A model generated the notes under the pieces. That model searched no databases and was not told the origin of the DNA. It saw only the letters and a program-made list of their open reading frames with translations. From IMG/VR virus record IMGVR_UViG_3300037454_000319: 64,000 bases of DNA. One strand, given 5' to 3'. Position 1 is the stretch's first letter; each line of letters begins with the position of its first letter. Position numbers and translations under genes: made by a program. Below are positions 2,833 to 47,621 of this stretch, one piece after another. This stretch comes from a virus.

Positions 2833-3246
2833 TTAACCCTCAGTCTTCTCAGGGTTTGTCTTAGCAACGTAAGGTGTACCTGTGAAAGTATAACCCTTAA
2901 CCTTGCCCTTACCGTTTGCAGACTTCTGCTGCTCAGCCTCTACGAAGCAACCCTCTGTAACAAGTGCTCTAAGAAGAGCAGATGCCTTCTGAGTGTTCTT
3001 AAGGTTGAAAGCAGTTGCAATTTCGCCTGCTGTGTAAACCTTGTCGGCTACAGCGTTAGTAACAATCTGCTCCTTAACCTTCTCGTTCTCAAGCTGCTCA
3101 GGAGTAAGCTTTGCACGTCTGTTTGCGTTCTTCTGCTCAATGTCAGCAATTCTATTTGTTGCATAAGCAACAAGGTCAGGCTCAATACCCTCGATAGCAA
3201 GTACTGCATTAAGGAACGCTCTCTCAGTCATTTTCTCGTTAGCCAT
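2833..3246 (-). CDS. hypothetical protein (137 aa)
   Basis: ORF track; own promoter copy upstream; RBS. Confidence 0.55.
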   Translation of the reverse strand: MANEKMTERAFLNAVLAIEGIEPDLVAYATNRIADIEQKNANRRAKLTPEQLENEKVKEQIVTNAVADKVYTAGEIATAFNLKNTQKASALLRALVTEGCFVEAEQQKSANGKGKVKGYTFTGTPYVAKTNPEKTEG

Positions 3247-13717: not shown

Positions 13718-14848
13718 TTAATCCTCCTTTGGCAGTTCTATCTTAAATAATGAAATGAACTTAGATGTGGTCATATCAGTAAATAAAGAATCTAAACGAC
13801 CGTCAAAAGCAGCGAAGTAAAGTGCCGCAGCCTTGTTCTTTCCGAAGTCCTGCGCGAACCACTTACGAGCAGTACGGTCGCCCTCTCCAAATGGGTGCTC
13901 CTTCTTCCATAATGATACAACTCTCTTTATTTCATATACTAATATATCTATTGCTTCAAGCTGTAATCTAACCTTAGTAAATGTATCCTCATACTCAGGA
14001 AAGTATGATAAAAACTCTGCGTCATCATTCTCACGAATTAAATCTACAATACGCTCTAAAGTAATTACTCCGTTGTTCTTTGCCTTGTGCATTTGGAAGT
14101 AAAGTAAAGTCTTAATCTTAACACGCTCATAGTTCTTGTCACATACAACAATACCTTCATGACCTTCAGGCATATTTGCGACAAGCTGACGATATTCTGC
14201 TTCATCTTCAAGGAGATATGTCTTAGGACAGCTAACTCCTAATTCTTTTGCAATTTGCCGAGCCGCAGGAGTTTCGTGAAGGTCTTCAGATAGCATATTA
14301 CGTGCAGAAAGAAGATATACCTTAGTCTCAGGATAGTCAATAACAACCTTGTTATAAGGAGATACAAGCTCGAAAGTTAAGCAATAAGGCTCATAACGGT
14401 TACCCACGAAGGCGGATAGAGGAAGTACAGACTCGAAGAGGTCTCCGAAAGTCTTATAAGGACCTACGCCGTTAAGCTCAGCCTTGAAAGCATCTATCTT
14501 GCCGTTTGTTGATATATGCCACTTGCCGCGAGCAAACCATACAGACATTATAGAGCCATCTATCTTCTCAGATGCAACGGCAGTATCCCAGTCTATATGA
14601 GCTGCATAGGACTCGTCTATATTGAAGAACTTCTTGAACGCATAGCGAACTACCTTGAAGTCATCACGAGCATCAAGGATAAGACCACGAGCCTCGCGGC
14701 AAATTTCCTCGTTAAAGTCAGAGTCTATCTGGCTATACTTGAAAAGAACGAAGCCGTCGTCCTCAGAAATTTTTAAGTTGTAAGGCGCATCAGCTAAAAG
14801 TTCACGCCAGTTATCATGTGCAAGGATAAACTCCTGTATTTTTAACAT
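13718..14848 (-). CDS. ATP-dependent RNA ligase, T4 Rnl1-like
   Basis: nucleotidyltransferase motif I EKIDGS (KxDG); ~375 aa like T4 Rnl1; genome rich in tRNA and other RNA-repair genes. Confidence 0.55.
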   Translation of the reverse strand: MLKIQEFILAHDNWRELLADAPYNLKISEDDGFVLFKYSQIDSDFNEEICREARGLILDARDDFKVVRYAFKKFFNIDESYAAHIDWDTAVASEKIDGSIMSVWFARGKWHISTNGKIDAFKAELNGVGPYKTFGDLFESVLPLSAFVGNRYEPYCLTFELVSPYNKVVIDYPETKVYLLSARNMLSEDLHETPAARQIAKELGVSCPKTYLLEDEAEYRQLVANMPEGHEGIVVCDKNYERVKIKTLLYFQMHKAKNNGVITLERIVDLIRENDDAEFLSYFPEYEDTFTKVRLQLEAIDILVYEIKRVVSLWKKEHPFGEGDRTARKWFAQDFGKNKAAALYFAAFDGRLDSLFTDMTTSKFISLFKIELPKED

Positions 14849-24278: not shown

Positions 24279-25211
24279 TTATCTATTCTTAAGCATATCT
24301 CTTACATATGTCATTGTAAGTGAACCACAAACCTTACCGAAGTTCTCGCAAGCGGTAACTACCTCTGGCTCCTCCTTACGGCAGTCCTCATACATCATCT
24401 TAGGAAGAACCTTTGCAATCGCACTCATGTCATGCTCGTCCCAATCAGGTCTGAGTTGCCCCTCGTCCACAAGCTTCTGGAGACACTTCTCAACTCTACG
24501 CTCAGTAGCGATTGATGCGACATACTGTCTCTCAGCCTCTCTCTTCTTAAGCTCCTCGGGGTCAACAGGCTTCTTATGGTCATGATGAACCTCAGAAAAC
24601 TTCTCTGCGACAATCTTGAGGTATGTAGGAAGTCTATTGCTCTTGTCATCAAGTCTATCCTGAGACTTAATTACAATACCCTCACCGCAAGGCTCTGCTC
24701 CGAGCATTGTTTGACCAACAAGCTCATATACAGTATCCCAACCTCTGAACTCGCCTGTGTAGAAAACAGGTACGAAACGGATTACTTGCTGTGTAAGCTG
24801 TGCCGCCTTCTCAAGTCCATTAAAGATTGCAAGTGTGTCGATATGTGGAAGGTATTGCTCAGTCTCAGTATCCCATACGTCGAACATATAGAAGTTCTTG
24901 TACTTGTCATCAGGATAACGGATAGTATGCTTTGTAAGCCACTCACCGAAGATTACGTATCTGCCGTGCTGAGTGAGCATGTCAATTTGAGATACCTTAA
25001 GTTGCTGTGCCCAATTCCAAAAACCATTGAGGTTATTGCTCTCATTGAGCTGGTTCTTACGAGAAAACGCAAGAACAGTATTTGTGTCGGGGTCGTATGT
25101 GAAGGAAGCGTTTGAACCGTCAACCTTCTCAGTAATTGTTATCTGCTCTCCAATGGTAAAAGCAACATCGTACTTCTCCTTGAAGCGCTCAATATCCATG
25201 TAATGCTTCAT
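24279..25211 (-). CDS. nucleotidyltransferase ligase, Rnl2-like RNA ligase (or ATP-dependent DNA ligase)
   Basis: motifs I EKVDGSN, III YVIFGEWL, IV EGIVIK, V YLKIVAEK. Confidence 0.55.
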   Translation of the reverse strand: MKHYMDIERFKEKYDVAFTIGEQITITEKVDGSNASFTYDPDTNTVLAFSRKNQLNESNNLNGFWNWAQQLKVSQIDMLTQHGRYVIFGEWLTKHTIRYPDDKYKNFYMFDVWDTETEQYLPHIDTLAIFNGLEKAAQLTQQVIRFVPVFYTGEFRGWDTVYELVGQTMLGAEPCGEGIVIKSQDRLDDKSNRLPTYLKIVAEKFSEVHHDHKKPVDPEELKKREAERQYVASIATERRVEKCLQKLVDEGQLRPDWDEHDMSAIAKVLPKMMYEDCRKEEPEVVTACENFGKVCGSLTMTYVRDMLKNR

Positions 25212-28896: not shown

Positions 28897-29739
28897 TCAC
28901 TCCTTTAATTCCTTCTGTAAAGCTAACTTAATAATTGCAAATTTATATCTATCCATCTTTCCAATAAGCTCTTCATTTACCTTTGGTGCAACTTTAAGTA
29001 ATTCATCAACCTGTGCCTTAGACCAATCTCTTAAAGCCTGACCGAAAGCAATAGCCTCTTCTTTTGAAAAGCAACCTTTCTGTGTCTTTACGGCATAAAT
29101 ATCATCCCACTCTTTAAGAGCTTCCTCATCAATACCAGATGGCTTCAATAACTCTGCATATGAGCTATGCATAAATCTTTTCAACATTGAAGCCAATCTC
29201 ATTTCGTGAGAAAGTTGCTTTGCCGCGTAACCAAACTTATTTACCTCATCAACTTGAACTGGGTATGGGTGGTCAAGAGCATGGAACTTTTCCTCAATCA
29301 TACCGCCCATTGCCTTGACAGCAGATGGAGCATTTGCAAAAGCAATTTGTTCTGCATTTTCTCTAAACCATGACATAAGCAAGTAGTATTCTGGGTTAAT
29401 CCAAAACCAGTCTGAGAACAAAAGCTCAACAAAGTTTGAAGCGCCCTTCTTCCACTGGTCAATCATAAGACGAATATCCTTAACATCAACCTGACCATTA
29501 ATCTCAGGAAGGTCAAGTGTTACACTTGTAGGTTTAACATTAAATACTACATCTTCAAGCTTAGGAACAACTACTGCCTTATAATCGAAGTCACTACCTT
29601 CTCTTTGGAGGTTGTAGTTCTGAGCACCGTAGAGCGCGACATAAACTACTTCGTAACCTTGGTCTTTAAGAAACTCTACTGTTTTAAGCAAGTTCTGACC
29701 TTCAAGAGAAGCCAGTGCCTTTGAACGCATTTCTTCCAT
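28897..29739 (-). CDS. putative minimal nucleotidyltransferase (Pol-beta-like GS...DxD)
   Basis: YGAQNYNLQREGSDFDY motif. Confidence 0.4.
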   Translation of the reverse strand: MEEMRSKALASLEGQNLLKTVEFLKDQGYEVVYVALYGAQNYNLQREGSDFDYKAVVVPKLEDVVFNVKPTSVTLDLPEINGQVDVKDIRLMIDQWKKGASNFVELLFSDWFWINPEYYLLMSWFRENAEQIAFANAPSAVKAMGGMIEEKFHALDHPYPVQVDEVNKFGYAAKQLSHEMRLASMLKRFMHSSYAELLKPSGIDEEALKEWDDIYAVKTQKGCFSKEEAIAFGQALRDWSKAQVDELLKVAPKVNEELIGKMDRYKFAIIKLALQKELKE

Positions 29740-29759
29740 TCACATTTCTCCTTTCCATT

Positions 29760-29801
29760 TATTATACATATATTATATCATATAATATAAAAAAAGTCAA
29801 A
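29760..29801 (-). promoter_or_regulatory. conserved promoter copy 17 (spacer 16)
   Basis: -10 29773-29778, -35 29795-29800. Confidence 0.6.
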
Positions 29802-29803
29802 TT

Positions 29804-30289
29804 TTAACTATATTTGTAAGCAACAAAAATAACGTTTTGGTCTTTCTCAATTTCCTCAAGTACACTTTTCATAATTGACCAGTCGCCGCCACCAAGACCG
29901 CAACCAAAATAACAAGGTATTGCTATTGGAATTTGGTTTTCCCAGTTACAATGTTCACTACATCTCCAATTCTCTATTTCATTAGTAAATGCTTTCTTAA
30001 CTGCATCATAATCAGTATAACACTTATCTGTACCATAATCTTCTTGTCCGAAAACATTCCAAATACATCTATTTTCGTCAACACGATAATAGCATACAGT
30101 TCCAAGAGGTGACTCGCCATAGTTACACTCTTTATAATCTTGAATAAAAGTAGCATATTCTTTAAACACATTTGGATAGCGGTCTCTTATCTGCTTTGCT
30201 AAGCCGCCACCCATAACTCCTTTACAGTTGACTTGATGAGCTATGATTTTAATATCTGTATTTAATAAATCACCATGTGTAATTATCAT
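29804..30289 (-). CDS. macro-domain protein (ADP-ribose binding/processing)
   Basis: MIITHGDLLNTDIKIIAHQVNCKGVMGGGLA classic macro motif; RBS GGGAGGAA. Confidence 0.65.
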   Translation of the reverse strand: MIITHGDLLNTDIKIIAHQVNCKGVMGGGLAKQIRDRYPNVFKEYATFIQDYKECNYGESPLGTVCYYRVDENRCIWNVFGQEDYGTDKCYTDYDAVKKAFTNEIENWRCSEHCNWENQIPIAIPCYFGCGLGGGDWSIMKSVLEEIEKDQNVIFVAYKYS

Positions 30290-30624
30290 TCTCGTTCCTC
30301 CCAATTTACAATTACTCTGAAACAGTCTGGTATGTCATATCCATGGAGAACATGATAATCTGCTTTATACCCAACTGATGCATATATGGTCACAAGGTCA
30401 TCAGCAATTTTTCTATTCTCTTCTGTAGTATTTCCTTGTGGCCATATATCTACTGAAGCTTCAGTCATTCCACTAAAACTACATTGAGCAATTTCATTTT
30501 TTAATTTCTCATTATACACCCATAAATCTCGCATTACCTTATCAGAAAAATGCTCTGTCCTCATTCTTGCCAATGTTATATCATAAGCACCAATACTATC
30601 CCAAAAAGCATTAAAACTATTCAC
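30286..30624 (-). CDS. hypothetical protein
   Basis: ORF. Confidence 0.45.
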   Translation of the reverse strand: MNSFNAFWDSIGAYDITLARMRTEHFSDKVMRDLWVYNEKLKNEIAQCSFSGMTEASVDIWPQGNTTEENRKIADDLVTIYASVGYKADYHVLHGYDIPDCFRVIVNWEERE

Positions 30625-30626
30625 TC

Positions 30627-30902
30627 TTATTCCTCCTCAAACCACAAATGTGTTCCGTCCATTGCGTTAATCCTATCCAGTGCCGCCTCAAGGCTCATTC
30701 CGCCATCATAATATAACTCGCCGTCTTCTTCTATGCGACCTATACCATAATGAACGAGTTCATCTTTAAGTTCATTTAGTTCACAATCAAGTCTATCATG
30801 TGGAGTTAAATACTGTATATTTGATTTTACATATCCGACAGCATATGCCAGACAATCAAATCCCTCATTATATCCTATGCTAATGCAATTATACAGTGTC
30901 AT
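30627..30902 (-). CDS. hypothetical protein
   Basis: ORF. Confidence 0.45.
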   Translation of the reverse strand: MTLYNCISIGYNEGFDCLAYAVGYVKSNIQYLTPHDRLDCELNELKDELVHYGIGRIEEDGELYYDGGMSLEAALDRINAMDGTHLWFEEE

Positions 30903-30920
30903 AATTAGTCCTCCTTTTTA

Positions 30921-30962
30921 TTTTCTAATAAAATTATACCATAAAAAATAAAAAAAGTCAAG
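30921..30962 (-). promoter_or_regulatory. conserved promoter copy 18
   Basis: -10 30933-30938, -35 30956-30961. Confidence 0.7.
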
Positions 30963-30977
30963 GTTTTTAACCTTGAC
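30957..30977 (-). terminator. terminator gtcaaggtt-ttt-aaccttgac fused to promoter 18
   Basis: stem + T-run. Confidence 0.65.
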
Positions 30978-30979
30978 TC

Positions 30980-31234
30980 TTAGAAAATGTGATAAGGCGG
31001 CACAACCATATCTCCGCCACTCGTGTCCCAATAGAATCTTCTCCACATGGATTTAGAATCCCATTGCATTTCACTAACTTTTATATGTCTTTTCTTAAGT
31101 TCTTCTTTCATCTCAGAAGTTAATGGCGGTAAGTACAATGCATAATAAACTGTAACTCCACCGTAACCATTCGAACTTGCTTTGTTAAGCCAGTGCTGTA
31201 TCTGCTTTTTTCGCACAAGTTCTACAAGCCCCAT
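30980..31234 (-). CDS. hypothetical protein (start MGLVELV, RBS AGGAGGAA)
   Basis: ORF trimmed. Confidence 0.45.
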   Translation of the reverse strand: MGLVELVRKKQIQHWLNKASSNGYGGVTVYYALYLPPLTSEMKEELKKRHIKVSEMQWDSKSMWRRFYWDTSGGDMVVPPYHIF

Positions 31235-31252
31235 TACTATTCCTCCTACCAA

Positions 31253-31616
31253 AAAAAATAGAGCAAACTAACGTCTGCTCTTTTTAAAACGATAGTTAAA
31301 ACTCGACTCAGTACCGCTCTCGGATTTCGGTGTCTCTCTGTTCGACACTAACAGAATAAGCTTACTACCCTTATTCATCAATGCAATTCATTCTGAATTG
31401 CCAAATATCAGGTTGTTCTAACCTGCAACTCTGGTAGTTCCACTTTCGTGTCGCCGAAGCGATAAATCACTATTCGCTCCCTACCTCCTTGTTATCATCT
31501 TTTATACTTTCAAAAAATGATTTGCTGATGAGCCGAAAATATATATACAAAGACTATTGCCCTCGTAACTTTGTATAGAGAGGTAGTCTTTTTAAACTAC
31601 CTCTCTAAATTTTTCA
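31253..31616 (-). ncRNA. 364-nt structured noncoding region without the canonical promoter (candidate ncRNA or long leader)
   Basis: no ORF; UUCG tetraloop hairpin atcgcttcggcgac; bidirectional terminator-like hairpin 31262-31283; hairpin 31588-31613. Confidence 0.3.
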
Positions 31617-33065
31617 TCACTTCCAAGAGAACTCTGGACGGCTAAGTATTTCTACCATAGCCTGATAAGCGTTCTTCTCAATGAGTTCAAGCAAGAACTT
31701 GAAAGGACCTACACCAGCACCACTACAGTAACTGATGTTATCTGAAGTTGTAGCCATATAGTTATCCTGACGAGCATCAACATTCCAACTTACGACCTTA
31801 GTCTCTGGAAGACCAGCTTCACGGAGTCTTCTGTTCCACTTACCAACAATAGACTCGCCCTGATTACGGCCACAGTCATAGTCAAACTGACCATCTGAAA
31901 TTACAACAAGAGCCTTTGGTACTTCTCTTGTTCTAACTGCAACCTCATAAATCTTTGCGAAAGCCTTATCGAGGTCTGTATTGTAACCAACACCGACACT
32001 CTTAGCTCTATTTACGCAACGAGTGATGTCCCAGCTATCCTCAATCTTGACAAAGTAAGGGTCACGAGAATAAGTCATATACAAACCATGATATGCACCC
32101 TTATTACGCTGAGCGAAATAAGTTGCAAGACCAATAGATGTAGCCATAGGCTTACCAGTCATAGACTCAGAAACATCTGCCATAACAACAACGTCAAAGT
32201 CGCCCTTTACATAGTTAGGAAGTTTGTTCCACTGAGCCTTATCAAGAACACTATTTGTATCATTCTTATAAAGTATATTGTATACTATATCATATGGATA
32301 AAGAGTTGACGCTTTTACATCAGCTTCACCCTTATCAAGGGCCGCCATGTAAGCTGAATATCTTTCATTGTCATTCTTATTAAATGCCTTAGAATATCTA
32401 CGTGCAGCAATTGATGGAACAGTCTCGTAGTTAATATTACTCCAGTTCTTAGCACTCATATCTACCTCAACAACGTCAAGATACTTACGAAGCTTAGAAA
32501 GAGTCTTACGATATGTTCTTGGCTTAATACCAGCTACCTTACAAATACGACGTGCGCGAGCGCAAGTCTCCTTAGATGAAGTGTTAATAGAAGGCATCCA
32601 CTTAGCAAGAAGTGAAATAGGAGCTTTTGCGGCTACACCTTCGATATCCTTCATAAGCTGTGCAATAACAAAGTTAATTACATCATCGCCGATAGAAGTA
32701 TCAAGCAACTCAAAAAGGTCATCATATCTACCAACATTTACAAGAGTCTGGAAATTACGCTTTACCTTCTCAGGGTTAAGACGTACAAGCTCCTTCAAAA
32801 GGATACGACCGATACGTCTCTCACCAAGACCAGCATTACGAATATCACGAGCATAAAGAATGAGGTTGTCTGCCAACTCTTCATTCTCAAGACGAGCATC
32901 TCTCCAGTCCATTATTATATCCTGCTCATTACGATTTCTCATGCCACCTATCTTAGCATAAAAATCAAGAAGTGCGCCGCCATTTGTAGAACGATATGCT
33001 ACAGCACCATTCTCAGTATAAGTCTCATTAGCCATTGTCTTACATACATTTGCAAAATTACTCAT
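31617..33065 (-). CDS. DUF2828/TROVE-like N-terminal domain + C-terminal von Willebrand A (vWA) domain protein
   Basis: vWA MIDAS DVVVMADVSESMTG...ALVVISDGQ; N-term TENGAVAYRSTNGGALLDFYAKIGG. Confidence 0.55.
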   Translation of the reverse strand: MSNFANVCKTMANETYTENGAVAYRSTNGGALLDFYAKIGGMRNRNEQDIIMDWRDARLENEELADNLILYARDIRNAGLGERRIGRILLKELVRLNPEKVKRNFQTLVNVGRYDDLFELLDTSIGDDVINFVIAQLMKDIEGVAAKAPISLLAKWMPSINTSSKETCARARRICKVAGIKPRTYRKTLSKLRKYLDVVEVDMSAKNWSNINYETVPSIAARRYSKAFNKNDNERYSAYMAALDKGEADVKASTLYPYDIVYNILYKNDTNSVLDKAQWNKLPNYVKGDFDVVVMADVSESMTGKPMATSIGLATYFAQRNKGAYHGLYMTYSRDPYFVKIEDSWDITRCVNRAKSVGVGYNTDLDKAFAKIYEVAVRTREVPKALVVISDGQFDYDCGRNQGESIVGKWNRRLREAGLPETKVVSWNVDARQDNYMATTSDNISYCSGAGVGPFKFLLELIEKNAYQAMVEILSRPEFSWK

Positions 33066-33107
33066 TACACATTACTCCTTCAAGATAAATTATTTTTAGT
33101 TTGCTGT

Positions 33108-33153
33108 TTTATCTTACTTATATATTATACTATAAAATATTAAAAAAGTCAAA
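33108..33153 (-). promoter_or_regulatory. conserved promoter copy 19
   Basis: -10 33124-33129, -35 33147-33152. Confidence 0.65.
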
Positions 33154-33343
33154 TTTTTGGGGGGAAAATAAGGGCAACGTCGCAACGCCACCCTTACTCG
33201 GCTACTGCCGATAGTGCTTATCTCCCTGCACGGGCTCGCTATCCTTACGAATAGCTATCCTTTTAACGTCTTGATGGACGAGCGTGGATTTACCACATAC
33301 GCTACCACTTAATTTTTTATAGACGGAAATTAAGAAAACCAAC

Positions 33344-33436
33344 TGGCGCCTACTCTCGGACTCGAACCGAGACACCGCTTGCGCGACTACTACTGGTTTT
33401 CAAGACCAGTCCCTTACCAGTTAGGGTTAAGTAGGC
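33344..33436 (-). tRNA. tRNA-Ser (TGA), long variable arm
   Basis: 93 nt, loop CTTGAAA. Confidence 0.6.
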
Positions 33437-33457
33437 AAAAACAAGATACGTTTTTTC

Positions 33458-33488
33458 TCGTGCCTCTACCAATTGGGCTACTCCCCGA
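33458..33488 (-). pseudogene. tRNA 5'-half fragment (acceptor CGGGGAG + D-arm GCCCAATTGGTAGAGGC)
   Basis: D-arm identical to tRNA 34495..34571; no anticodon or T arm follows. Confidence 0.5.
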
Positions 33489-33491
33489 TAT

Positions 33492-33568
33492 GTTGCCCAT
33501 GACGGACTCGAACCATTATTCTCCCTACTTTCGTAGGGCGTAAACACCATGTATACTACATAGGCAAT
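33492..33568 (-). tRNA. atypical tRNA-like gene (acceptor GCCTATG/CATGGGC, TA at 8-9, GNRA hairpin CCCTAC-GAAA-GTAGGG, T-loop GGTTCGAGTCC)
   Basis: cloverleaf-like fold but anticodon loop CGAAAGT lacks U33. Confidence 0.3.
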
Positions 33569-33569
33569 C

Positions 33570-33615
33570 TGGTCGGGGAGGATGGGATTCGAACCCACAC
33601 TCTCGTGCTCCTAAA
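33570..33615 (-). pseudogene. tRNA 3'-half fragment (TAG loop, T-arm GTGGGTTCGAATCCCAT, acceptor CTCCCCG-A-CCA)
   Basis: 3' acceptor strand perfectly complementary (8 nt) to 5' fragment 33458-33488 located downstream: permuted order. Confidence 0.45.
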
Positions 33616-33644
33616 CGCAATAGATAGTTGCTGACGTATCTTTA

Positions 33645-33720
33645 TGGTGCCGAGGGGGAGACTCGAACTCCCAACGCGAGGCTCTTCAGGCCTCCGCTCT
33701 ACCGTTGGAGCTACCTCGGC
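33645..33720 (-). tRNA. tRNA-Phe (GAA) copy 2
   Basis: loop CTGAAGA. Confidence 0.55.
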
Positions 33721-33744
33721 ATTATCAAGACAGTTATACTTATA

Positions 33745-33805
33745 ACTCTACCATTGAGCTACGCGGCACTCTCGTACCACGGTGGGATTCGAACCCACAT
33801 CCTCC
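33745..33805 (-). pseudogene. tRNA fragments: 3'-like (GTGGGTTCGAATCCCAC) followed by 5'-like (GCCGCGTAGCTCAATGGTAGAG)
   Basis: partial arms only, no complete cloverleaf. Confidence 0.35.
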
Positions 33806-33859
33806 TTCAGACAAAAAGAAAAAGTTAAATGTTTTAAATGTTTTGCTGAACTGTCTTAT

Positions 33860-33936
33860 TGGTCGGAGCGGCGGGATTCGAACCCGCAAGAAACTGTTTT
33901 TGAGACAGCCGTGTCTGCCAATTGCACCACGCTCCG
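33860..33936 (-). tRNA. class-I (short variable arm) tRNA with anticodon CAA (Leu codon UUG)
   Basis: acceptor CGGAGCG/CGCTCCG perfect, A73, loop CTCAAAA, 5-nt variable loop. Confidence 0.5.
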
Positions 33937-33939
33937 ATT

Positions 33940-34015
33940 TGGGTGGAAAGATGAGACTCGAACTCACACCTTCATGGGCCACAACCATGCGCTCTACCGT
34001 TAAGCTACTCACCAC
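33940..34015 (-). tRNA. tRNA-His (GTG)
   Basis: loop TTGTGGC, C73. Confidence 0.5.
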
Positions 34016-34170
34016 ATCAATAAGACATACTATTGCGAACTTGCCGTATGTCAGGGCGGCTCATTTAATTTCTCCTCGTTAGGGATGTGCCGCGATGCCA
34101 TAACCGCGGAGTTGTCATATTGATTCTCCCAAACCAATAGGACGTAATAAAAATGCAATTGCCTTTCGGC

Positions 34171-34244
34171 TGGTCGGCACAGGAAGATTCGAACTTCCGC
34201 TCCTTTCTTGTAAGGAAAGGTGACTCCCTTTATCGTATGCGCCG
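34171..34244 (-). tRNA. tRNA-Val (TAC)?
   Basis: loop CTTACAA; atypical D-arm. Confidence 0.4.
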
Positions 34245-34271
34245 ATTAACAAGACTCTTTATACCTTTACG

Positions 34272-34345
34272 GTCCGGAAGAGGGATTCGAACCCTCATAT
34301 GTACGATTTTAGGTCGTATGACTTAGCCACTTTGTCTATTCTGGA
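34272..34345 (-). tRNA. class-I tRNA with anticodon TAA (Leu codon UUA), C33
   Basis: stem TACGA/TCGTA, loop CCTAAAA. Confidence 0.4.
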
Positions 34346-34494
34346 AAGAAATGTTGCTGAAGAGTCTTTAATTTGGTTCGGGTATGCTTATCGGAGTCAA
34401 GTACTCGCAGTTCCTCTTTCGAGGTATTTTCTTCGGAGTAAAGACCTTAAGGTTCGCGTAACCTCTTGTGCCCTAACCCATATCCGAAACCCGA

Positions 34495-34571
34495 TGGTGC
34501 CGATAGAGGGATTCGAACCCACACTGTCCAGTTCCTAAGACTGGTGCCTCTACCAATTGGGCTATGTCGGC
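34495..34571 (-). tRNA. class-I tRNA with anticodon TAG; D-arm and anticodon arm resemble bacterial tRNA-Leu(TAG) but long variable arm absent
   Basis: GCCCAATTGGTAGAGGC + CCAGTCTTAGGAACTGG, A73, 77 nt. Confidence 0.5.
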
Positions 34572-34594
34572 ATTAATGTCGGACAAACCGACAT

Positions 34595-34846
34595 TTATTT
34601 TGCTAATACTACTATTAGTGGAATGTGTCCTGTTTTATCATATGCCATAGCTAAAGGATATTTTTCAATTAGTTCTTTGTTATTTACTACTATCTGAGTC
34701 ATCACCATAGCAATACTTTCTTTTAATCCATCTTCATTGCAGAAGTAAGGACCGCCAGAATCTCCGCCATGGTCTACAGCATCTATAATAGTGCTATTAT
34801 AGGCTTTTATAAAATTAAGAAGGTCATAACTATCTTTAAAAACCAT
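34595..34846 (-). CDS. hypothetical protein
   Basis: ORF. Confidence 0.45.
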   Translation of the reverse strand: MVFKDSYDLLNFIKAYNSTIIDAVDHGGDSGGPYFCNEDGLKESIAMVMTQIVVNNKELIEKYPLAMAYDKTGHIPLIVVLAK

Positions 34847-34857
34847 AATATTCTCCT

Positions 34858-35412
34858 TTACTTAGAAAGCATATTTGCGATACCAGAAGCCGCATAGCTG
34901 TCTGGCTTAATACGAGACTCAAAACCCATGCTATCAATATAGCCACAGATTTCTGTAATCATCTCATGTGTCTTGCCGCGCTTACCAATGTCAGCGTGAA
35001 TAGCAAAACCAAGCTGTTCCTTATTGTGCATCTCGTCAAGGTCAATATCATAATCAATTAACTCATATGCAAGAGCATCATAGAAACCTGTTGCATTTTG
35101 AATAGAACGGAATGTCTCTTCATAAATTTTTGTCTTTAAAACAGATATTCTTGGAATATCCTCTACCTTGTAAAAGAAAATGCCGCCATCACCAACACGG
35201 CAGACAGCAATTACTTCTACCATTCTTGTATACTTGTGGTTCTGAGAGTCAGTTCCTATTGTAATATCATATTCGGCATCAGGCTTATCTGCAATAAATT
35301 TTGCAATAATCTTAATAACCTCATCAAACTTTACCTTAGTCTTTGCTCTGTTGCCACGAGTAAATATCTTGTCGGCAATCACGTCAATCTCTCCTTTTCT
35401 AACTATATTCAA
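34858..35412 (-). CDS. hypothetical protein, possible RNase H-like fold (motif ITIGTDSQ)
   Basis: ORF; weak motif only. Confidence 0.4.
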   Translation of the reverse strand: MNIVRKGEIDVIADKIFTRGNRAKTKVKFDEVIKIIAKFIADKPDAEYDITIGTDSQNHKYTRMVEVIAVCRVGDGGIFFYKVEDIPRISVLKTKIYEETFRSIQNATGFYDALAYELIDYDIDLDEMHNKEQLGFAIHADIGKRGKTHEMITEICGYIDSMGFESRIKPDSYAASGIANMLSK

Positions 35413-35546
35413 GACGATTTTATAAATTGGGCTCTTCTTAATGGAAAAAAAAGAAATTCAATTTGAAAAGTTTGCAGAAATCGTCTTAGTGGTGATAATA
35501 CGTGCCGCGGCACCACAGACCGCTATATGTGGTCGCACGTATTCTC

Positions 35547-35632
35547 TGGTCGGCTCGGTGGGACTCGAACCCACATGCCCTTACGGGCACCAGAACCTTA
35601 ATCTGGCGCGTATACCAATTCCGCCACGAGCC
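35547..35632 (-). tRNA. tRNA-Leu (AAG), class II with Leu-type variable arm; A34 unusual for bacteria
   Basis: 86 nt, loop TTAAGGT, variable arm GCCCGTAAGGGCA. Confidence 0.5.
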
Positions 35633-35711
35633 GTTGGTTGCTGATAAAGTCCAGCTTACTACATATCTGTCTTTAATAAACGAGGACAACATTTGTTCTT
35701 ACACTCGTAAG

Positions 35712-35787
35712 TGGTCGGAGATGCGGGACTCGAACCCACAGCCTCTGCGTCCCAAGCGCAGCCGTCTACCAAATTGGCGTAATCCCC
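35712..35787 (-). tRNA. tRNA-Pro (TGG)
   Basis: loop CTTGGGA. Confidence 0.6.
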
Positions 35788-35796
35788 GATTTTAAA

Positions 35797-35872
35797 TGGT
35801 GGACCTGAAGGGAGTCGAACCCTCGACCTCCTGCTTGCAGGGCAGGCGCTCTCCCAATTGAGCTACAGGCCC
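35797..35872 (-). tRNA. tRNA-Ala (TGC) with G3-U70
   Basis: acceptor GGGCCTG/CAGGTCC, loop CCTGCAA. Confidence 0.55.
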
Positions 35873-36490
35873 ATTAATTCTTGACAACTTTATAAAAAGA
35901 ACATTGTCGGTTTTTATTCGCCGTACTCATACAACGCTGCACATTATTCAGTCACAGTGGCGATAAGTCTGAGCCCCAGAGCCGTCGCTCTGAAACTTCT
36001 TACCGCGAGTCCGAAGACTCCAAGCACTGAGGGGAATCTTTCTACCCCCAACTTTCACCCATCATTCAGAATTTGATAATTATAATACTTTCTATCATCA
36101 AAACCAAATCTGAGCCTTGGGCTACTCGTACCACCATCGGGTTTCCTTTCCATTTCTGAAAAGGTTATAGGCTCAACCCCATTGCTTTGCATTCCCTGTA
36201 TTTGCTCACATCTTGCGGACGTGGTCTGCAGGGTTCTTCCCATCTGGGCGTCTATTGTTGGGGCAACCAGTTTAGGTGTACCATTGCTTCACGTTGCACC
36301 TGTGCCACTACTTCTTCATTGGTGGCTGGTATACCACCTGCCCATATCCCCTTTCGGTTCAATGGCCGCTCCCGTTTTGAGGTATCCCTCTGACGAAAAC
36401 GAGACAGTTCCATAGTGCCCATGCAGAGTTGATTAGACCCTCATTTTAACACATGGTTACAACATACTTTTTATGAAGTTGTCAAGATAA
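35873..36490 (-). ncRNA. ~620-nt GC-rich (~48%) noncoding island between tRNA-Ala and a tRNA fragment; possible TTGACA-N17-TTGTAA promoter near 36440-36470
   Basis: no ORF >62 aa in any frame; many GC hairpins; adjacent HNH endonuclease. Confidence 0.3.
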
Positions 36491-36491
36491 G

Positions 36492-36560
36492 TGGTCGGCG
36501 AGATGGGATTCGAACCCACACTGAATGGATTTTCGTACTACTCTATATCGCTATAGCCGC
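36492..36560 (-). pseudogene. tRNA 3'-fragment / pseudo-tRNA (GTGTGGGTTCGAATCCCATCTCGCCGACCA)
   Basis: good T-arm and CCA but 5' half not tRNA-like. Confidence 0.4.
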
Positions 36561-36608
36561 ATAATGCGTTGTAGTCTGGACTTAGTCTTTACCATATTCA
36601 TATAGAAC

Positions 36609-37124
36609 TTAGGTAGCTGGTGTAAAGTCTCTACACATAGATTTTAGACGTACATTTCTACCACGATAAGTTTCTGTAAGAGCATGACAATTTGGGCATA
36701 AATAACGAAGATTAGATAATTCATTATTAGTATTATCTCCATCAATATGGTCAATTTCTAATGAAATTATCCCACCTTGCCAAGAACCATCACAACCACA
36801 ATTAATACATTTATAATCAAGAAGTTTATATCTTTCAACATATCCTCTTAATCCTTTTTGGCTAATTGGGCTGTTTTTAATGAAGACTTCTTCTAATGTA
36901 TATTTCTCTTTACGTTTAAGTGAAGCATTATCATCTTTTGTAAGACCTTTACTCCAACCTTGACCTTTAAAATGAGAAACATCAATTCCAAATTCTTCAA
37001 TTTTGTTCTTTAGAGTTTTTTGTGCTCCACCGCCTTGTGCACGTCCCGATTTTCTCAGAACTTCTGCATAAGAAAAGCTTTCTGCACAAACTTTCTCTAA
37101 CCACTCTTTAGTATATTTCTGCAT
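36609..37124 (-). CDS. HNH homing endonuclease
   Basis: C-terminal EIDHIDGDNTNNELSNLRYLCPNCHALTE HNH motif; sits in tRNA region. Confidence 0.75.
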   Translation of the reverse strand: MQKYTKEWLEKVCAESFSYAEVLRKSGRAQGGGAQKTLKNKIEEFGIDVSHFKGQGWSKGLTKDDNASLKRKEKYTLEEVFIKNSPISQKGLRGYVERYKLLDYKCINCGCDGSWQGGIISLEIDHIDGDNTNNELSNLRYLCPNCHALTETYRGRNVRLKSMCRDFTPAT

Positions 37125-38294: not shown

Positions 38295-38369
38295 TGGAGC
38301 GGAATACGAGACTCGAACTCGCAACACCTGCTTGGAAGGCAAGGATGTTCCCAATTACACCAATTCCGC
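38295..38369 (-). tRNA. tRNA-Gly (TCC)
   Basis: loop CTTCCAA. Confidence 0.6.
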
Positions 38370-38449
38370 ATTAACAAGACACTTATAAATAGCTACTTTT
38401 GATTAACCGTCAAATGCTTTTTTCTATAAGAAATTTGCTGAATGTGTCT

Positions 38450-38490
38450 TTCAATATAAATATTATATCATAATTTATTTTAAAAGTCAA
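38450..38490 (-). promoter_or_regulatory. conserved promoter copy 21 (spacer 16)
   Basis: -10 38462-38467, -35 38484-38489. Confidence 0.6.
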
Positions 38491-40870: not shown

Positions 40871-41788
40871 TTAGTGCGCTGCTCTATCTGCTTCGTTAAG
40901 TAATGCAAGGTGTGCCATAAATTCTGCATCAAAACGCTGAGCAAGTTTCTCTACATAACCAGACTTATAGTGGTCCATATGGTGTTGAATTAAGTTTGCA
41001 ATGTATAAGCTCTGCCACTGGTCTGATGCATGAGATAAGTACATATATGCACTAACGTTTTCGTGATTGTAGTAGTGAGCTTCTTCTGTCGGCTCATTAC
41101 GTGCATTATGGAATACCTTACAATAAGGCTTTCCAAGGTCATGATAACGTGCCGCCACCTGAATCCACCAGAACTCTGCCCCTGGCATACGGTTATTGAG
41201 CTTAAGTTCCTGACGCTTTCTCTTTATAATGAAGTCCTCTGCAAGAACCATGTGGTGTCCGATTGTCTCAGAATGGTGGTGATTATCATGGGAAATTTTC
41301 ATTGCCTTAGCAAGTTCATCTTCCAAATATTCATTATCTAATGAGTTACCGTACATAACGATTTCATCCCAACCCTCAGACTCATGTGGCACTTCGAAGT
41401 TTCTCAACATACGGTCAAGAGCATAATCAGGAACTTGACGCTCACGACCTGCATTCTGCTCCTTCACAACCTCGAAAGGCGGCACAACAAGTACGCAAAT
41501 CTTTTGAACATTAGGAATATGTGAAAGTTCCTTTAATAAGTTAATACGACGCTTAGCATTAATGTTTGTTGCATCATAGAATACATCTGCACCCGCCTTT
41601 AAAAATTCTCTTGTTCTCTTTAACATTATGTCAAATACTTCGCCATTATGCTCTTGGTCATTTACATCTCCGAATACTTCTTCACGAATTGCATCTGAAG
41701 AAACATACTCAGCATATAAATAATTTTCAGCATAAACCGTGGACTTACCAGCTCCTGCAATGCCAACAGCCATATAAAATCTTGCCAT
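40871..41788 (-). CDS. polynucleotide 5'-kinase (P-loop) fused to HD phosphohydrolase domain; putative RNA-repair kinase-phosphatase
   Basis: Walker A GIAGAGKST; HD motif HSETIGHHM...HDLGK. Confidence 0.6.
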   Translation of the reverse strand: MARFYMAVGIAGAGKSTVYAENYLYAEYVSSDAIREEVFGDVNDQEHNGEVFDIMLKRTREFLKAGADVFYDATNINAKRRINLLKELSHIPNVQKICVLVVPPFEVVKEQNAGRERQVPDYALDRMLRNFEVPHESEGWDEIVMYGNSLDNEYLEDELAKAMKISHDNHHHSETIGHHMVLAEDFIIKRKRQELKLNNRMPGAEFWWIQVAARYHDLGKPYCKVFHNARNEPTEEAHYYNHENVSAYMYLSHASDQWQSLYIANLIQHHMDHYKSGYVEKLAQRFDAEFMAHLALLNEADRAAH

Positions 41789-46580: not shown

Positions 46581-47621
46581 TTATCCTTTTCTAATGTTAT
46601 ATCCATATTGGTCAGAGTGATAGAACTCAATCCAGTATTTTTCTTTTTCAGTCTGCTCTTCTTTTGGACAAACTTCAACTATTTCCCAAGTAAAGTTTTC
46701 TAATCCTTCATCAAACATAGCGTCATATATTTGACCGCTTATACGCTCGATATTACAACCGCGCTTCGCATGGGTGCGCCAACGGTCAATGAACTTGGTA
46801 GTCTTACCAATATAAACCTTTTCGTTATTTATGTTGGTAATCTTATAAATGCCGCCCTTCTCTTTATTTTCTCCAAGAACTTGTTTGAAAAGATTTTCGA
46901 TTGCTGTTTTATAGTAAGTCTCATATAAAAGTTTGTAGAATATCTCAGGGCGGGAAAACCCAGGCGCCATCGACTTCAGCTTCTTAATATCGCTCTCAGA
47001 AAGAGAGTCAATAGTTATGTGATAGAAGTCACGTTGTTTTCTAAGTTCTTCATCTTTCTTAAACTGCTCAACGATTGCTGCTTGTTTTTGTTCAAAGGCT
47101 TTAATTTCTTCAGTCAACGCCGCCTTTTTCATATTTATCTCGTCGCTGAAGTTCAAAAAATTTACACGGAGTTCCTCCTGTTTCTTTTCATAATCAGCAT
47201 TGAGACAAGCAAGTTTAGCTTCTCTTGATTTTGTTGCTTTAGAAATTATCTCGGCGTTTTCTTTCTGACGTTCAAGTTCAAGTTGTTCGTCCATTTCTTG
47301 ATAGCGCTGACGAGTTTTTTGATAATCTTCCTCAAGTTGCTGTGCCGCCTCTTGATAAGACTTTTCCTTATAATCATATTCTTTCTCTACTTCATGTAAA
47401 GCTTCTTTCTTTTTCTGAATAACTGCTTCAATTTCATCGGACATTTCCTTTTCTGTCGCAGTTTTCTTTTCAACCAGCTCTTGCTTAACTTTCTGCTGTT
47501 CTGCGGTAAAGTTAATAGACTTACTCCACTTCCTTGCAGCCAAGTAATCGTAGCCAGCGTGGAGTAAAACGCCGACTACTAAACAGGCTATACCAATTAA
47601 AATAATCATTATCGCTTGCAT
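46581..47621 (-). CDS. N-terminal TM helix + long coiled coil + C-terminal GIY-YIG nuclease domain
   Basis: C-term GGIYKITNINNEKVYIGKT...YWIEFY paralogous to 3947..4576 N-domain. Confidence 0.6.
   Translation of the reverse strand: MQAIMIILIGIACLVVGVLLHAGYDYLAARKWSKSINFTAEQQKVKQELVEKKTATEKEMSDEIEAVIQKKKEALHEVEKEYDYKEKSYQEAAQQLEEDYQKTRQRYQEMDEQLELERQKENAEIISKATKSREAKLACLNADYEKKQEELRVNFLNFSDEINMKKAALTEEIKAFEQKQAAIVEQFKKDEELRKQRDFYHITIDSLSESDIKKLKSMAPGFSRPEIFYKLLYETYYKTAIENLFKQVLGENKEKGGIYKITNINNEKVYIGKTTKFIDRWRTHAKRGCNIERISGQIYDAMFDEGLENFTWEIVEVCPKEEQTEKEKYWIEFYHSDQYGYNIRKG

Follow-up and report, generated by a model that had tools for sequence, protein, structure and literature searches.

The locus described here probably encodes a Ro60/Y-RNA ribonucleoprotein module in a divergent phage form. 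In the window, by which we mean the whole 64,000-nt stretch of DNA that was analyzed, a 482-aa protein with the predicted fold of Ro60 is accompanied by a family of small RNAs encoded on the gene strand, in which a stem of 8-10 bp joins the 5' and 3' ends and is followed, after 0-4 nt, by a conserved CAGCAA. The phage also encodes two RNA ligases, both inside the window, as well as an RlaP-like nucleotidyltransferase and a kinase-like protein. A preliminary description of this DNA had proposed that a phage rich in tRNA and RNA-repair genes pairs a Ro60-like protein with partners resembling Y RNAs. The proposal is partly supported: its core stands, in agreement with the predicted fold, a sub-threshold YrlA match and the RNA ligases, but the coordinates given for the RNAs and the expected TROVE sequence did not hold.

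Features of the locus and the adjoining tRNA array (L numbers denote related loci; R1 scores are those of the RNA family model described in the text)
Feature	Position	Strand	Remarks
Ro60-like protein gene	31617..33065	(-)	482 aa; N-terminal helical-repeat DUF2828, C-terminal vWA/MIDAS DUF7788
Hairpin 1	31576..31607	(-)	right behind stop codon; 14 bp, no U tract; stem kept by compensatory changes in L083 and L100
Hairpin 2, weak, terminator-like	31546..31567	(-)	UACGAGGGCAAUAGUCUUUGUA + UAUAUAUUUU; sequence kept among relatives at 64% protein identity or more
236-nt structured RNA cassette	31302..31537	(-)	P1 31529-31537/31302-31310; CAGCAA 31522-31527; multi-hairpin cargo
Intrinsic terminator	31253..31281	(-)	GAGCAGAC...GUUUGCUC + U8; ends 3'-flank RNA; abuts Shine-Dalgarno of next ORF
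Minimal stem-CAGCAA hairpin in 5'UTR	33082..33115	(-)	AAGAUAAAACAGCAAACUAAAAAUAAUUUAUCUU; R1 22.3 bits, E=0.023-0.024
Sigma-70-type promoter of Ro60-like gene	33124..33152	(-)	TTGACT-17-TATAAT; 11/12 matches; conserved in L081, L083 and L084
Terminator-like hairpin ending upstream tRNA/Y-like RNA array	33165..33195	(-)	read from alignment; kept in relatives
YrlA-like RNA 2	33443..33642	(-)	stem AAGAUACGU/ACGUAUCUU + CAGCAA; T-arm 33582-33598; D-arm 33462-33480
YrlA-like RNA 1	33726..33858	(-)	stem UAAGACAGUU/AACUGUCUUG + CAGCAA; R1 25.4 bits
Stem-CAGCAA cassette around tRNA-Leu(taa) 34271-34345	34251..34368	(-)	R1 15.6 bits (weak)
Short stem-C(U)GCAA cassette	35411..35487	(-)	abuts start of RNaseH_like (PF04308) gene; R1 37.7 bits, E=8.6e-6
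Short stem-CAGCAA cassette	38376..38450	(-)	beside tRNA-Gly 38295-38369; R1 34.0 bits, E=5.7e-5

The Ro60-like protein

The open reading frame exists as first described, with the quoted peptides TENGAVAYRSTNGGALLDFYAK, DVVVMADVSESMTG and VISDGQ all present, and both domain assignments were borne out. Pfam places DUF2828 (PF11443; 113 bits, cut-off 29; E=2e-32) ahead of the vWA-type DUF7788 (PF25043; 55.6 bits, cut-off 27.1; E=5.8e-15), and residues D297, S299, S301, T363 and D391, which make the MIDAS motif DxSxS...T...D complete, are invariant in 38 relatives. Furthermore, PHROG 850 matches residues 1-480 with E=1.3e-109.

The relation to TROVE that had been suggested for the N-terminal domain stands for the predicted fold but not for the sequence. 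Fold comparison recovered the Ro60 architecture, a HEAT-like helical-repeat ring followed by a vWA domain, from the predicted fold of the protein, and was the only route that worked. Ro60 itself takes up Y RNA at the outer surface of its ring and single-stranded RNA ends in the central hole. Pfam gave no TROVE match (PF05731) at E<=1, and searches of PDB sequences with phmmer and a 38-sequence profile returned weak integrin vWA domains only, with no solved Ro60 chain among them. Based on these comparisons, the relation of the DUF2828 protein to Ro60/TROVE shows only at the level of the predicted fold.

Over 700 sequenced phages encode proteins of the PHROG 850/DUF2828 type, among them Felixounaviruses, Listeria A511-like phages, Bacillus Tsamsa-like phages and cluster-L mycobacteriophages; a metagenome scan with the single protein as query found two distant loci only. 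The protein type is already suspected by phage annotators. The 'Ro-like RNA binding protein' of cluster-L mycobacteriophages (Rumpelstiltskin gp54), which shares 35% identity over 95% of the protein and likewise has DUF2828 and DUF7788, and the PHROG 850 'RNA-binding protein' belong to the same family, these names being annotation labels only. We found no paper giving an RNA partner or a structure for the DUF2828/PHROG 850 family. In the cluster-L mycobacteriophage, a weak stem-CAGCAA match lies in the gap 3' of the gene, and no tRNAs are nearby.

The stem-CAGCAA RNA family and its genomic neighbors

Members of the RNA family share the closing-stem consensus UAAGAC-NNNN ... NNNN-GUCUUG, whose inner pairs covary. 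The cargo enclosed by this stem may be one hairpin (55-90 nt), a tRNA-like body permuted to the order T/closed stem/D, as in YrlA (~130 nt), or a multi-hairpin body, as in the 236-nt RNA behind the gene. Our model R1 gave 76 matches at E<=0.01 in 461 kb, every one of them on the gene strand, and none in 203 kb of unrelated viral DNA. The closing stem (P1) was paired in 92.8% of cases compared with 72.5% in shuffles, double-change cells numbered 136 compared with 44, and the covariation score of 0.573 fell to 0.02-0.12 when the pairing was slid, with compensatory changes at 8 of the 9 pairs. These counts rest on a model-fitted Infernal alignment, since MAFFT misaligned the cassette interiors. 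No description of a stem-CAGCAA RNA family was found in the literature.

The Y-RNA-like partners that had been expected beside the gene are present on its strand but lie inside the tRNA array, outside the coordinates first proposed. YrlA-like RNA 1 sits between tRNA-Leu and tRNA-Phe with spacers of 1 and 5 nt and comprises a T-arm (33782-33798), a closed acceptor-like stem-loop (33762-33781) and a D-arm (33744-33761). It matches Rfam YrlA (RF02553) with 31.5 bits, below the gathering threshold of 69 (E=5e-5 locally); positions 33798-33744 align with model positions 26-82 in the order T/closed acceptor-like/D, and all pairs are standard. YrlA-like RNA 2 has no Rfam YrlA match, and the order T/acceptor-like/D is seen there by inspection. 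Its long acceptor-like stem (33573-33580/33481-33488) carries an inserted tRNA-like element, and L081 has a compact ortholog without the insert. The two RNAs lie ~660-790 and 380-580 nt upstream of the coding sequence, respectively, within a limit of ~4 kb.

Four relatives have further YrlA matches of 32.5-42.4 bits, each within a cassette and each short of the threshold (L098, 42.4 bits over the full model; L034; L024; L088), and none of 20 loci contained YrlA at the gathering score. The motif GNCGAAN0-1G near the 5' end of YrlA is the proposed Ro60 contact (Chen et al. 2014, PMC4201824). This motif is absent from the 5' stem region of 33726-33858 and 31302-31537, where CAGCAA is found at that position. 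The metazoan-type Y RNA model (RF00019) gave no match at E<=10 in 30900-33700 or at E<=5 in 33300-36600.

Cassettes are concentrated around the gene. Twenty-four lie in the last 300 nt ahead of the start codon and another 16 in the first 600 nt behind the stop, compared with 2-5 per bin elsewhere, and the peak persists in loci that have no tRNA within 3 kb. When 120 loci were chosen solely by the cassette pattern, 31 carried the gene, on the same strand in all and within 450 nt in 23. R1 matches were also found beside the gene in the cultured phages Tsamsa (36.6 bits), Rumpelstiltskin, Alf5 and A511; those outside Tsamsa are weak (E 0.02-0.04). In the window, the cassettes cluster at 33.0-38.5 kb.

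Alternatively, the cassettes could serve polycistronic tRNA-array transcripts as modules for processing or stability, with the gene nearby only because it lies in a tRNA array. Their stems would protect ends, act as spacers that insulate tRNA folding, or offer sites for a nuclease such as the neighboring conserved RNaseH_like protein, and the real ligands of the Ro60-like protein would be something else, for instance misfolded tRNAs. Such a role is possible because the DUF2828 gene was not seen in 89 of the 120 cassette-selected loci (~10 kb examined per locus), because cassettes stand ahead of RNA ligase, PTH2 and other genes as well, and because 23 of 58 well-paired cassettes lie within 20 nt of a tRNA (39 within 1 kb). 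Additionally, one cassette encloses a normal tRNA-Leu, and the tRNA region of phage T5 holds stable RNAs without a DUF2828 protein. We nevertheless regard this explanation as unlikely, at perhaps one chance in a few, because the cassettes peak right beside the gene even where tRNAs are missing, and because neither the other, distal 22-tRNA array of the window nor the 25-tRNA region of T5, our sole tRNA-rich negative control phage, contains a single one. Some cargos, moreover, are tRNA mimics of YrlA type, the signature partner of Ro60. A classical RNase III site also needs a stem longer than 9 bp, which counts against processing.

The two flanks of the gene

The gene had been described as bracketed by two long structured noncoding regions free of promoters. 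For the 3' flank, structure was confirmed: read on the minus strand, 31253-31616 has a minimum free energy of -114.8 kcal/mol (z = -7.76), and 0 of 100 shuffles were as stable. The UUCG hairpin noted there, C(UUCG)G at 31451-31462, falls within the cargo of the 236-nt RNA, and the terminator-like hairpins were located at 31546-31567 and 31260-31281, the latter compensated in L100 (GAGUAAAC/GUUUACUC). The cassette at 31302-31537 fits the family descriptor with a 9-bp stem, 1 nt and CAGCAA; R1 misses it because its cargo measures 218 nt. P1 pairing survives C-G to U-A and A-U to C-G changes in L002 and L087 and is kept with entirely different sequences in L006, L008, L018 and L025. As the P1 5' strand of L002 and L087, UUGACUUA was rejected, the true strand lying further downstream. 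No common structure emerged for the large downstream cargos, which have P1 alone in common.

In 752 kb scanned, the 3'-flank signature occurs solely downstream of the Ro60-like gene. The RNA is wholly absent from L088 and L090 (61% identity), and a long downstream gap is missing in about half of the protein family. An IMG/VR search with hairpin 2 and both P1 halves of the window RNA gave chance matches only. Greater conservation of the 3' flank than of the coding sequence was rejected as an argument for selection, since it holds in L083 (90% versus 83%) but is reversed in L100 (54% versus 70%), and since the next gene is even more conserved, so that mosaicism could explain the pattern. The Rfam Y_RNA and YrlA models, proposed as a check on both flanks, matched neither 31253-31616 nor 33160-33340 even at E<=10. 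We conclude that the 3'-flank RNA is real, that it fits no Rfam Y RNA model, and that nothing but the common closing stem and CAGCAA signature links it to the YrlA-like RNAs.

There is no promoter between the coding sequence and the 3' RNA. The terminator of the RNA abuts the Shine-Dalgarno sequence of an 84-aa ORF (30980-31234), with no promoter in between. This arrangement would suit a cis-acting leader, attenuator- or riboswitch-like, that governs read-through into this ORF and the genes behind it, as would the occurrence of RNA and 84-aa gene together in the window, L081, L083, L102, L100, L002 and L087 and their joint absence from L088 and L090. We consider a leader improbable, however, since a related RNA in L003 has its own terminator, behind which lie a promoter and another gene, L001 and L101 carry the 83-aa gene behind a different, shorter leader, and, in clades whose downstream genes differ, equivalent large cassettes likewise stand 3' of the Ro60-like gene. 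No alternative antiterminator pairing was obvious either.

On the 5' side, the description as promoter-free fails, as the gene has its own promoter at 33152-33124. The minimal hairpin occupies the space between the -10 box and the Shine-Dalgarno sequence GAAGGAG (33075-33081), recurs in L081, L083 and L100, and is possibly an autoregulatory or 5'-end-protecting copy. The hairpin at 33165-33195, whose U tract is short, was missed by the terminator scan. The fold stability of 33066-33343, which includes 33160-33340, is not unusual (z = -1.94), and the part adjoining tRNA-Ser (33344-33436, next to this flank as noted before) is deleted in the close relatives L083 and L084. We therefore rejected the 5' flank as an RNA gene, the terminator, promoter and untranslated region accounting for its sequence; 33160-33340 is a variable tRNA-array trailer with a terminator.

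It is very improbable that the inverted repeats work at the DNA level, as sites of recombination or mobility through which tRNA and small-RNA gene cassettes are reshuffled, with RNA structure incidental: cassette content between tRNAs does vary by insertion and deletion among close relatives, and the surroundings often contain homing endonuclease genes (HNH, GIY-YIG), but the strand bias is strict (76/76), CAGCAA is conserved on one strand only, G-U pairs are tolerated with a frequent closing U-G, and the inner pairs covary as RNA would.

Comparison with known systems and implications

Phage Ro60 genes of canonical type likewise adjoin Y-like RNAs (PMC4201824, PMC12135203), as in Thermus phage phiLo, where Ro60 is found with Yrl1 and Yrl2 (PMC12135203). 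The present locus resembles the bacterial and phage Ro60 (Rsr)-YrlA/YrlB systems in the predicted ring and vWA/MIDAS fold, in same-strand small RNAs within ~1 kb that have a 5'/3' stem and a conserved 5'-side motif, in at least one RNA with a T/closed acceptor-like stem/D tRNA mimic, and in RNA ligases encoded by the same genome. It differs in that the protein, of ~480 aa, lacks the TROVE sequence signature, the stem motif is UAAGAC...CAGCAA instead of GNCGAAN0-1G, the RNAs score 31-42 bits against a YrlA threshold of 69, and many RNAs with varied cargos are interleaved with true tRNAs in one genome.

Similarly, the tRNA region of T5 (NC_005859) contains stable RNAs between tRNA genes (RNAI, RNAIII, RNA1, RNA2, RNA3 and RNAX), non-tRNA or tRNA-like and presumably freed by tRNA processing, but it lacks both a DUF2828 gene and the stem-CAGCAA signature. 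ROOL RNA (RF03087), a large structured phage RNA found among tRNAs, also occurs here, 2.8 kb upstream and on the gene strand, and in Listeria phage A511 a ROOL-like match adjoins the homologous gene. ROOL differs in its size (~590 nt), its unrelated structure and its own 11-bp enclosing stem without CAGCAA.

If the locus is a Ro60/Y-RNA module, the small RNAs would be made as parts of the tRNA-array and Ro60-like gene transcripts. Given the tRNA/cassette/tRNA packing with spacers of 1-5 nt, RNase P and 3'-trimming enzymes would free the cassettes, whose ends the stem would protect. The stem and CAGCAA form a putative protein-binding site, the counterpart of the Ro60-binding stem of Y RNAs, and the variable cargo, above all the tRNA mimic, may recruit tRNA-handling or RNA-repair enzymes. 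As RNA ligases and RlaP-like and kinase-like proteins are encoded, the particle could serve, during infection, to survey damaged or misfolded tRNAs or to rescue them. The protein's own mRNA could come under feedback control through the 34-nt copy that sits between its -10 box and Shine-Dalgarno sequence.

A bolder reading, which we offer tentatively and hold at somewhat under an even chance, is that stem-CAGCAA RNAs are an undescribed, widespread class of phage Y RNAs that travel as passengers of tRNA arrays, are excised by the tRNA-processing machinery and are bound, via stem and CAGCAA, by Ro60 proteins of the DUF2828 type, while the copy in the 5'UTR of the gene would serve autoregulation. 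Depending on which of the swappable cargos it carries (tRNA mimics, hairpins, large multi-stem bodies), the particle would be sent to one or another task in RNA repair or tRNA surveillance, and ROOL-type RNAs in similar stems are perhaps also cargo.

The role of Ro60 in bacteria and phages is poorly understood, and few phage cases are known. Carriers of the family include phages that are easy to grow on E. coli, Salmonella, Listeria, Bacillus and Mycobacterium smegmatis, which makes the hypothesis directly testable. If it is true, the TROVE signature greatly underestimates how common the Ro60/Y-RNA system is in phages, a simple motif would be enough to recognize its RNA partners, and the system would have a physical, and probably a functional, link to phage tRNA arrays and RNA ligases. 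This would point to tRNA quality control or repair during conflict with host anticodon nucleases, and many gaps that lie unannotated among the tRNA genes of phages would gain a function.

The Ro60-like gene and its flanks

The preliminary description had recognized an open reading frame at 31617-33065 and proposed that it forms a Ro60/Y-RNA-like module with structured, promoter-free flanks at 31253-31616 and 33160-33340. The gene is real and lies on the minus strand, which is shared by all its neighbors; this puts the 5′ flank at 33066-33343 and the 3′ flank at 31253-31616. The window is clearly a piece of a large phage, with 38 tRNA genes in three arrays and related contigs of up to 119-190 kb. 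Pfam searches of the protein placed DUF2828 (E=2e-32) in front of a vWA-type domain, DUF7788 (E=5.8e-15), and no generic vWA model reached its own cut-off. An alignment of 38 relatives shows no variation at the MIDAS residues D297, S299, S301, T363 and D391 or at nine basic N-domain residues. The product is predicted to adopt a Ro60 fold, and it belongs to a family previously labeled Ro-like.

Features of the Ro60-like locus and of the surrounding window
Feature	Position	Strand	Remark
tRNA-Ser	33436-33344	-	first element of the 5′ flank, in gene-strand order
Stretch after tRNA-Ser		-	deleted in relatives L083/L084
Terminator-like hairpin	33195-33165	-	
Promoter TTGACT-17-TATAAT	33152-33124	-	
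34-nt hairpin	33115-33082	-	between promoter and Shine-Dalgarno
Shine-Dalgarno GAAGGAG	33081-33075	-	then start codon
14-bp hairpin		-	directly behind stop codon
Weak terminator-like hairpin	31567-31546	-	
236-nt body of 3′ RNA	31537-31529 with 31310-31302	-	closed by 9-bp stem P1
Strong intrinsic terminator	31281-31260 + U8	-	abuts Shine-Dalgarno of 84-aa ORF
84-aa ORF	30980-31234	-	
R1 matches, filters off	33082-33115, 33727-33857, 34251-34368, 35411-35487, 38376-38450		
ARAGORN 'tRNA-???'	33492-33566	-	two-base anticodon
tRNA-Leu(taa)	34271-34345		inside cassette 34251-34368 (-)
RNaseH_like gene	34858-35412	-	PF04308, E=3e-40
ROOL RNA	35889-36480	-	263 bits
RNA ligases (Rnl1-type and PF09414)	13718-14848, 24279-25211	-	
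Other RNA-repair-type genes	28897-30304, 40871-41788	-	
HNH and GIY-YIG homing-endonuclease-type genes	36609-37124, 46581-47621	-	in or near tRNA arrays

Of the two flanks, only the 3′ one is strongly structured as had been proposed (fold z=-7.76). Region 33160-33340 is a variable array trailer plus terminator, and we conclude that it is not an RNA gene because of the flank layout (a deletable stretch, a terminator-like hairpin and a promoter) and because the 5′ flank overall shows no unusual stability (z=-1.94). The promoter-free character proposed for this flank does not hold. The stretch between the CDS and the 3′ RNA has no predicted promoter; thus the RNA would arise by read-through from the Ro60-like mRNA. 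It is nearly unchanged in the close relatives L081, L083 and L102, while in L100 (66% protein identity) the framework is kept with compensatory changes in several stems. In L002/L087 and L003, P1 and the flanking hairpins are kept around different interiors, and the RNA is absent altogether from L088 and L090. Raw sequence conservation of this flank was judged a poor argument. The 84-aa ORF, situated between two terminators, has no family match and lacks a promoter of its own; its DNA is 97-98% identical in close relatives, and its presence or absence parallels that of the 3′ RNA in several relatives.

Several other genes were recorded in the window and its relatives. The RNA-repair type comprises, besides the two ligases, a weak RlaP-like nucleotidyltransferase (PHROG 388), a Macro domain protein and an AAA_33 kinase-like protein. 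A cassette abuts the start of the RNaseH_like gene, a conserved upstream neighbor of the Ro60-like gene in L081, L083, L087, L088, L090 and L098. Homing-endonuclease-type genes likewise occur in several relatives. A tmRNA gene close to the Ro60-like one, and tRNAs whose anticodon is CTA or TTA (called Pyl/Stop), were noted among relatives (L016, 6313-6651; L093, 1568-1904; L023, L034, L065, L072), a hint that stop codons may be suppressed or recoded in certain of these phages.

A covarying stem-CAGCAA RNA family

In every variant of the 3′ RNA, CAGCAA comes 1-4 nt after the 5′ strand of P1, and across 752 kb of related loci this signature is located solely downstream of the gene. Distant relatives (43-49% protein identity) have RNAs at the same place with wholly different closing-stem sequences, CAGCAA again coming next. 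A descriptor search located the stem-CAGCAA signature at other positions as well; counting stems of 9 bp or longer, 152 instances lay on the gene strand versus 24 on the opposite strand. These cassettes follow the consensus (U)AAGRC-NNNN-(0-2 nt)-CAGCAA ... NNNN-GYCUU(G) and range from 54 to ~250 nt.

R1, a covariance model derived from 30 short members, was run against 461 kb of DUF2828 loci, where it gave 76 matches (E<=0.01), every one on the gene strand; in unrelated viral DNA (203 kb) it gave none at E<=1. In the alignment of these matches, which was fitted to R1 and hence is biased toward structure, the margins are nonetheless large: 92.8% of P1 cells are paired versus 72.5% in shuffles, double-change cells number 136 versus 44, the covariation score is 0.573 versus 0.02-0.12 with partner columns slid, and compensatory changes occur in 8 of the 9 stem pairs. 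A covarying RNA family exists on the gene strand, and the 3′-flank RNA is one member of this Y-like family.

YrlA-type cargos and other structured RNAs

Some cassettes carry cargos of the YrlA type. The cassette at 33726-33858, set between tRNA-Leu and tRNA-Phe with spacers of 1 and 5 nt, contains a T-arm (GUGGGUUCGAAUCCCAC), a closed stem-loop and a D-arm (UAGCUCAAUGGUAGAGUU), the permuted order that defines the YrlA tRNA-like domain (PMC4201824). The Rfam YrlA model (RF02553) matched it over positions 26-82 with every pair standard, at 31.5 bits (local search E=5e-5), which falls short of the gathering score (69), the outer Ro60-binding stem of the model being unmatched. The adjacent cassette, 33443-33642, is arranged likewise except that its middle stem carries a long insert; L081 has the compact form. 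Sub-threshold YrlA matches were found in 4 of 9 further loci, each within a cassette, the one in L098 being full-length at 42.4 bits. Canonical YrlA was absent at the gathering threshold from 20 loci and at E<=0.05 from four cultured phages. RNAs of this kind lie next to the canonical Ro60 genes of bacteria and phages, two of them being bound by phiLo Ro60 (PMC4201824, PMC12135203). The proposed module is upheld in substance and misplaced in position, the true YrlA-like members lying just outside the regions first put forward.

The ARAGORN call lies inside the middle stem-loop of the second YrlA-like RNA and is missing from the compact L081 ortholog. tRNA-Leu(taa) is enclosed by a 9-bp stem and CAGCAA, so a normal-looking tRNA can serve as cargo. 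In some relatives tRNA-like fragments uncalled by ARAGORN and Rfam directly follow the gene (L004, ~3055-3135, with T-arm GGUUCGAUUCC and then AGUCGAGCGCCA; L099, ~1920-2000). A full-length ROOL RNA (RF03087) lies 2.8 kb upstream of the gene, inside a perfect stem of 11 bp (CUUGACAACUU / AAGUUGUCAAG) with flanks to ~36530; an orphan T-arm and UCGCCGACCA precede it, as though it were inserted in a tRNA-like frame. In Listeria phage A511 a ROOL-like match (L128, 2507-3058; 87.5 bits, threshold 99.1) occurs ~950 nt upstream of the gene homolog.

Position and possible role of the cassettes

Cassettes are concentrated beside the gene: the 300 nt ahead of the start codon hold 24 and the 600 nt behind the stop codon 16, versus 2-5 per 300-nt bin elsewhere. 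Among cultured carriers, Tsamsa has an R1 match (36.6 bits) 95 nt upstream of the gene, and Rumpelstiltskin, Alf5 and A511 have weak matches adjoining it. In the reverse direction, at least 120 IMG/VR loci were chosen solely by the pattern TAAGAC-N5-CAGCAA-N25-55-GTCTTG. Among the matches listed, 31 of 120 loci held a DUF2828-family gene, always on the cassette strand and in 23 of the 31 no more than 450 nt away. Genes directly behind cassettes include RNA ligase (six loci) and PTH2 peptidyl-tRNA hydrolase.

The main alternative holds that the cassettes serve tRNA-array transcripts as processing or stability elements and only share a neighborhood with the gene. That many cassette loci lack the gene fits this reading, as does tRNA abutment, a same-strand tRNA lying within 20 nt of 23 of 58 well-paired cassettes. 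However, an adjacent cassette was found in 33 loci, some lacking any tRNA within 3 kb, and the peak beside the gene persists in tRNA-free loci. Furthermore, a separate 22-tRNA array in the window (1.6-7.2 kb) has no R1 match with filters off, and phage T5, with 25 tRNAs, has neither cassette nor DUF2828 gene. The T5 record (L251, 28-42 kb) does list eight stable RNAs, some tRNA-like, between tRNA genes and so sets a precedent for phage tRNA arrays that carry passenger RNAs, though with neither the protein nor the motif studied here. Cis-regulation of the 84-aa ORF by the 3′ RNA, or action of the repeats at the DNA level, is less likely.

We favor a role tied to the Ro60-like protein, for which the stem and CAGCAA module is a putative binding site. 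Processing of the tRNAs would release cassette RNAs, the 5′UTR copy may feed back on translation, and the particle might act on tRNAs jointly with the phage RNA ligases, RlaP-like nucleotidyltransferase and kinase-like protein. The label of the protein family already existed; the new side appears to be the RNA, a recognizable and widespread Y-like family embedded in phage tRNA arrays.
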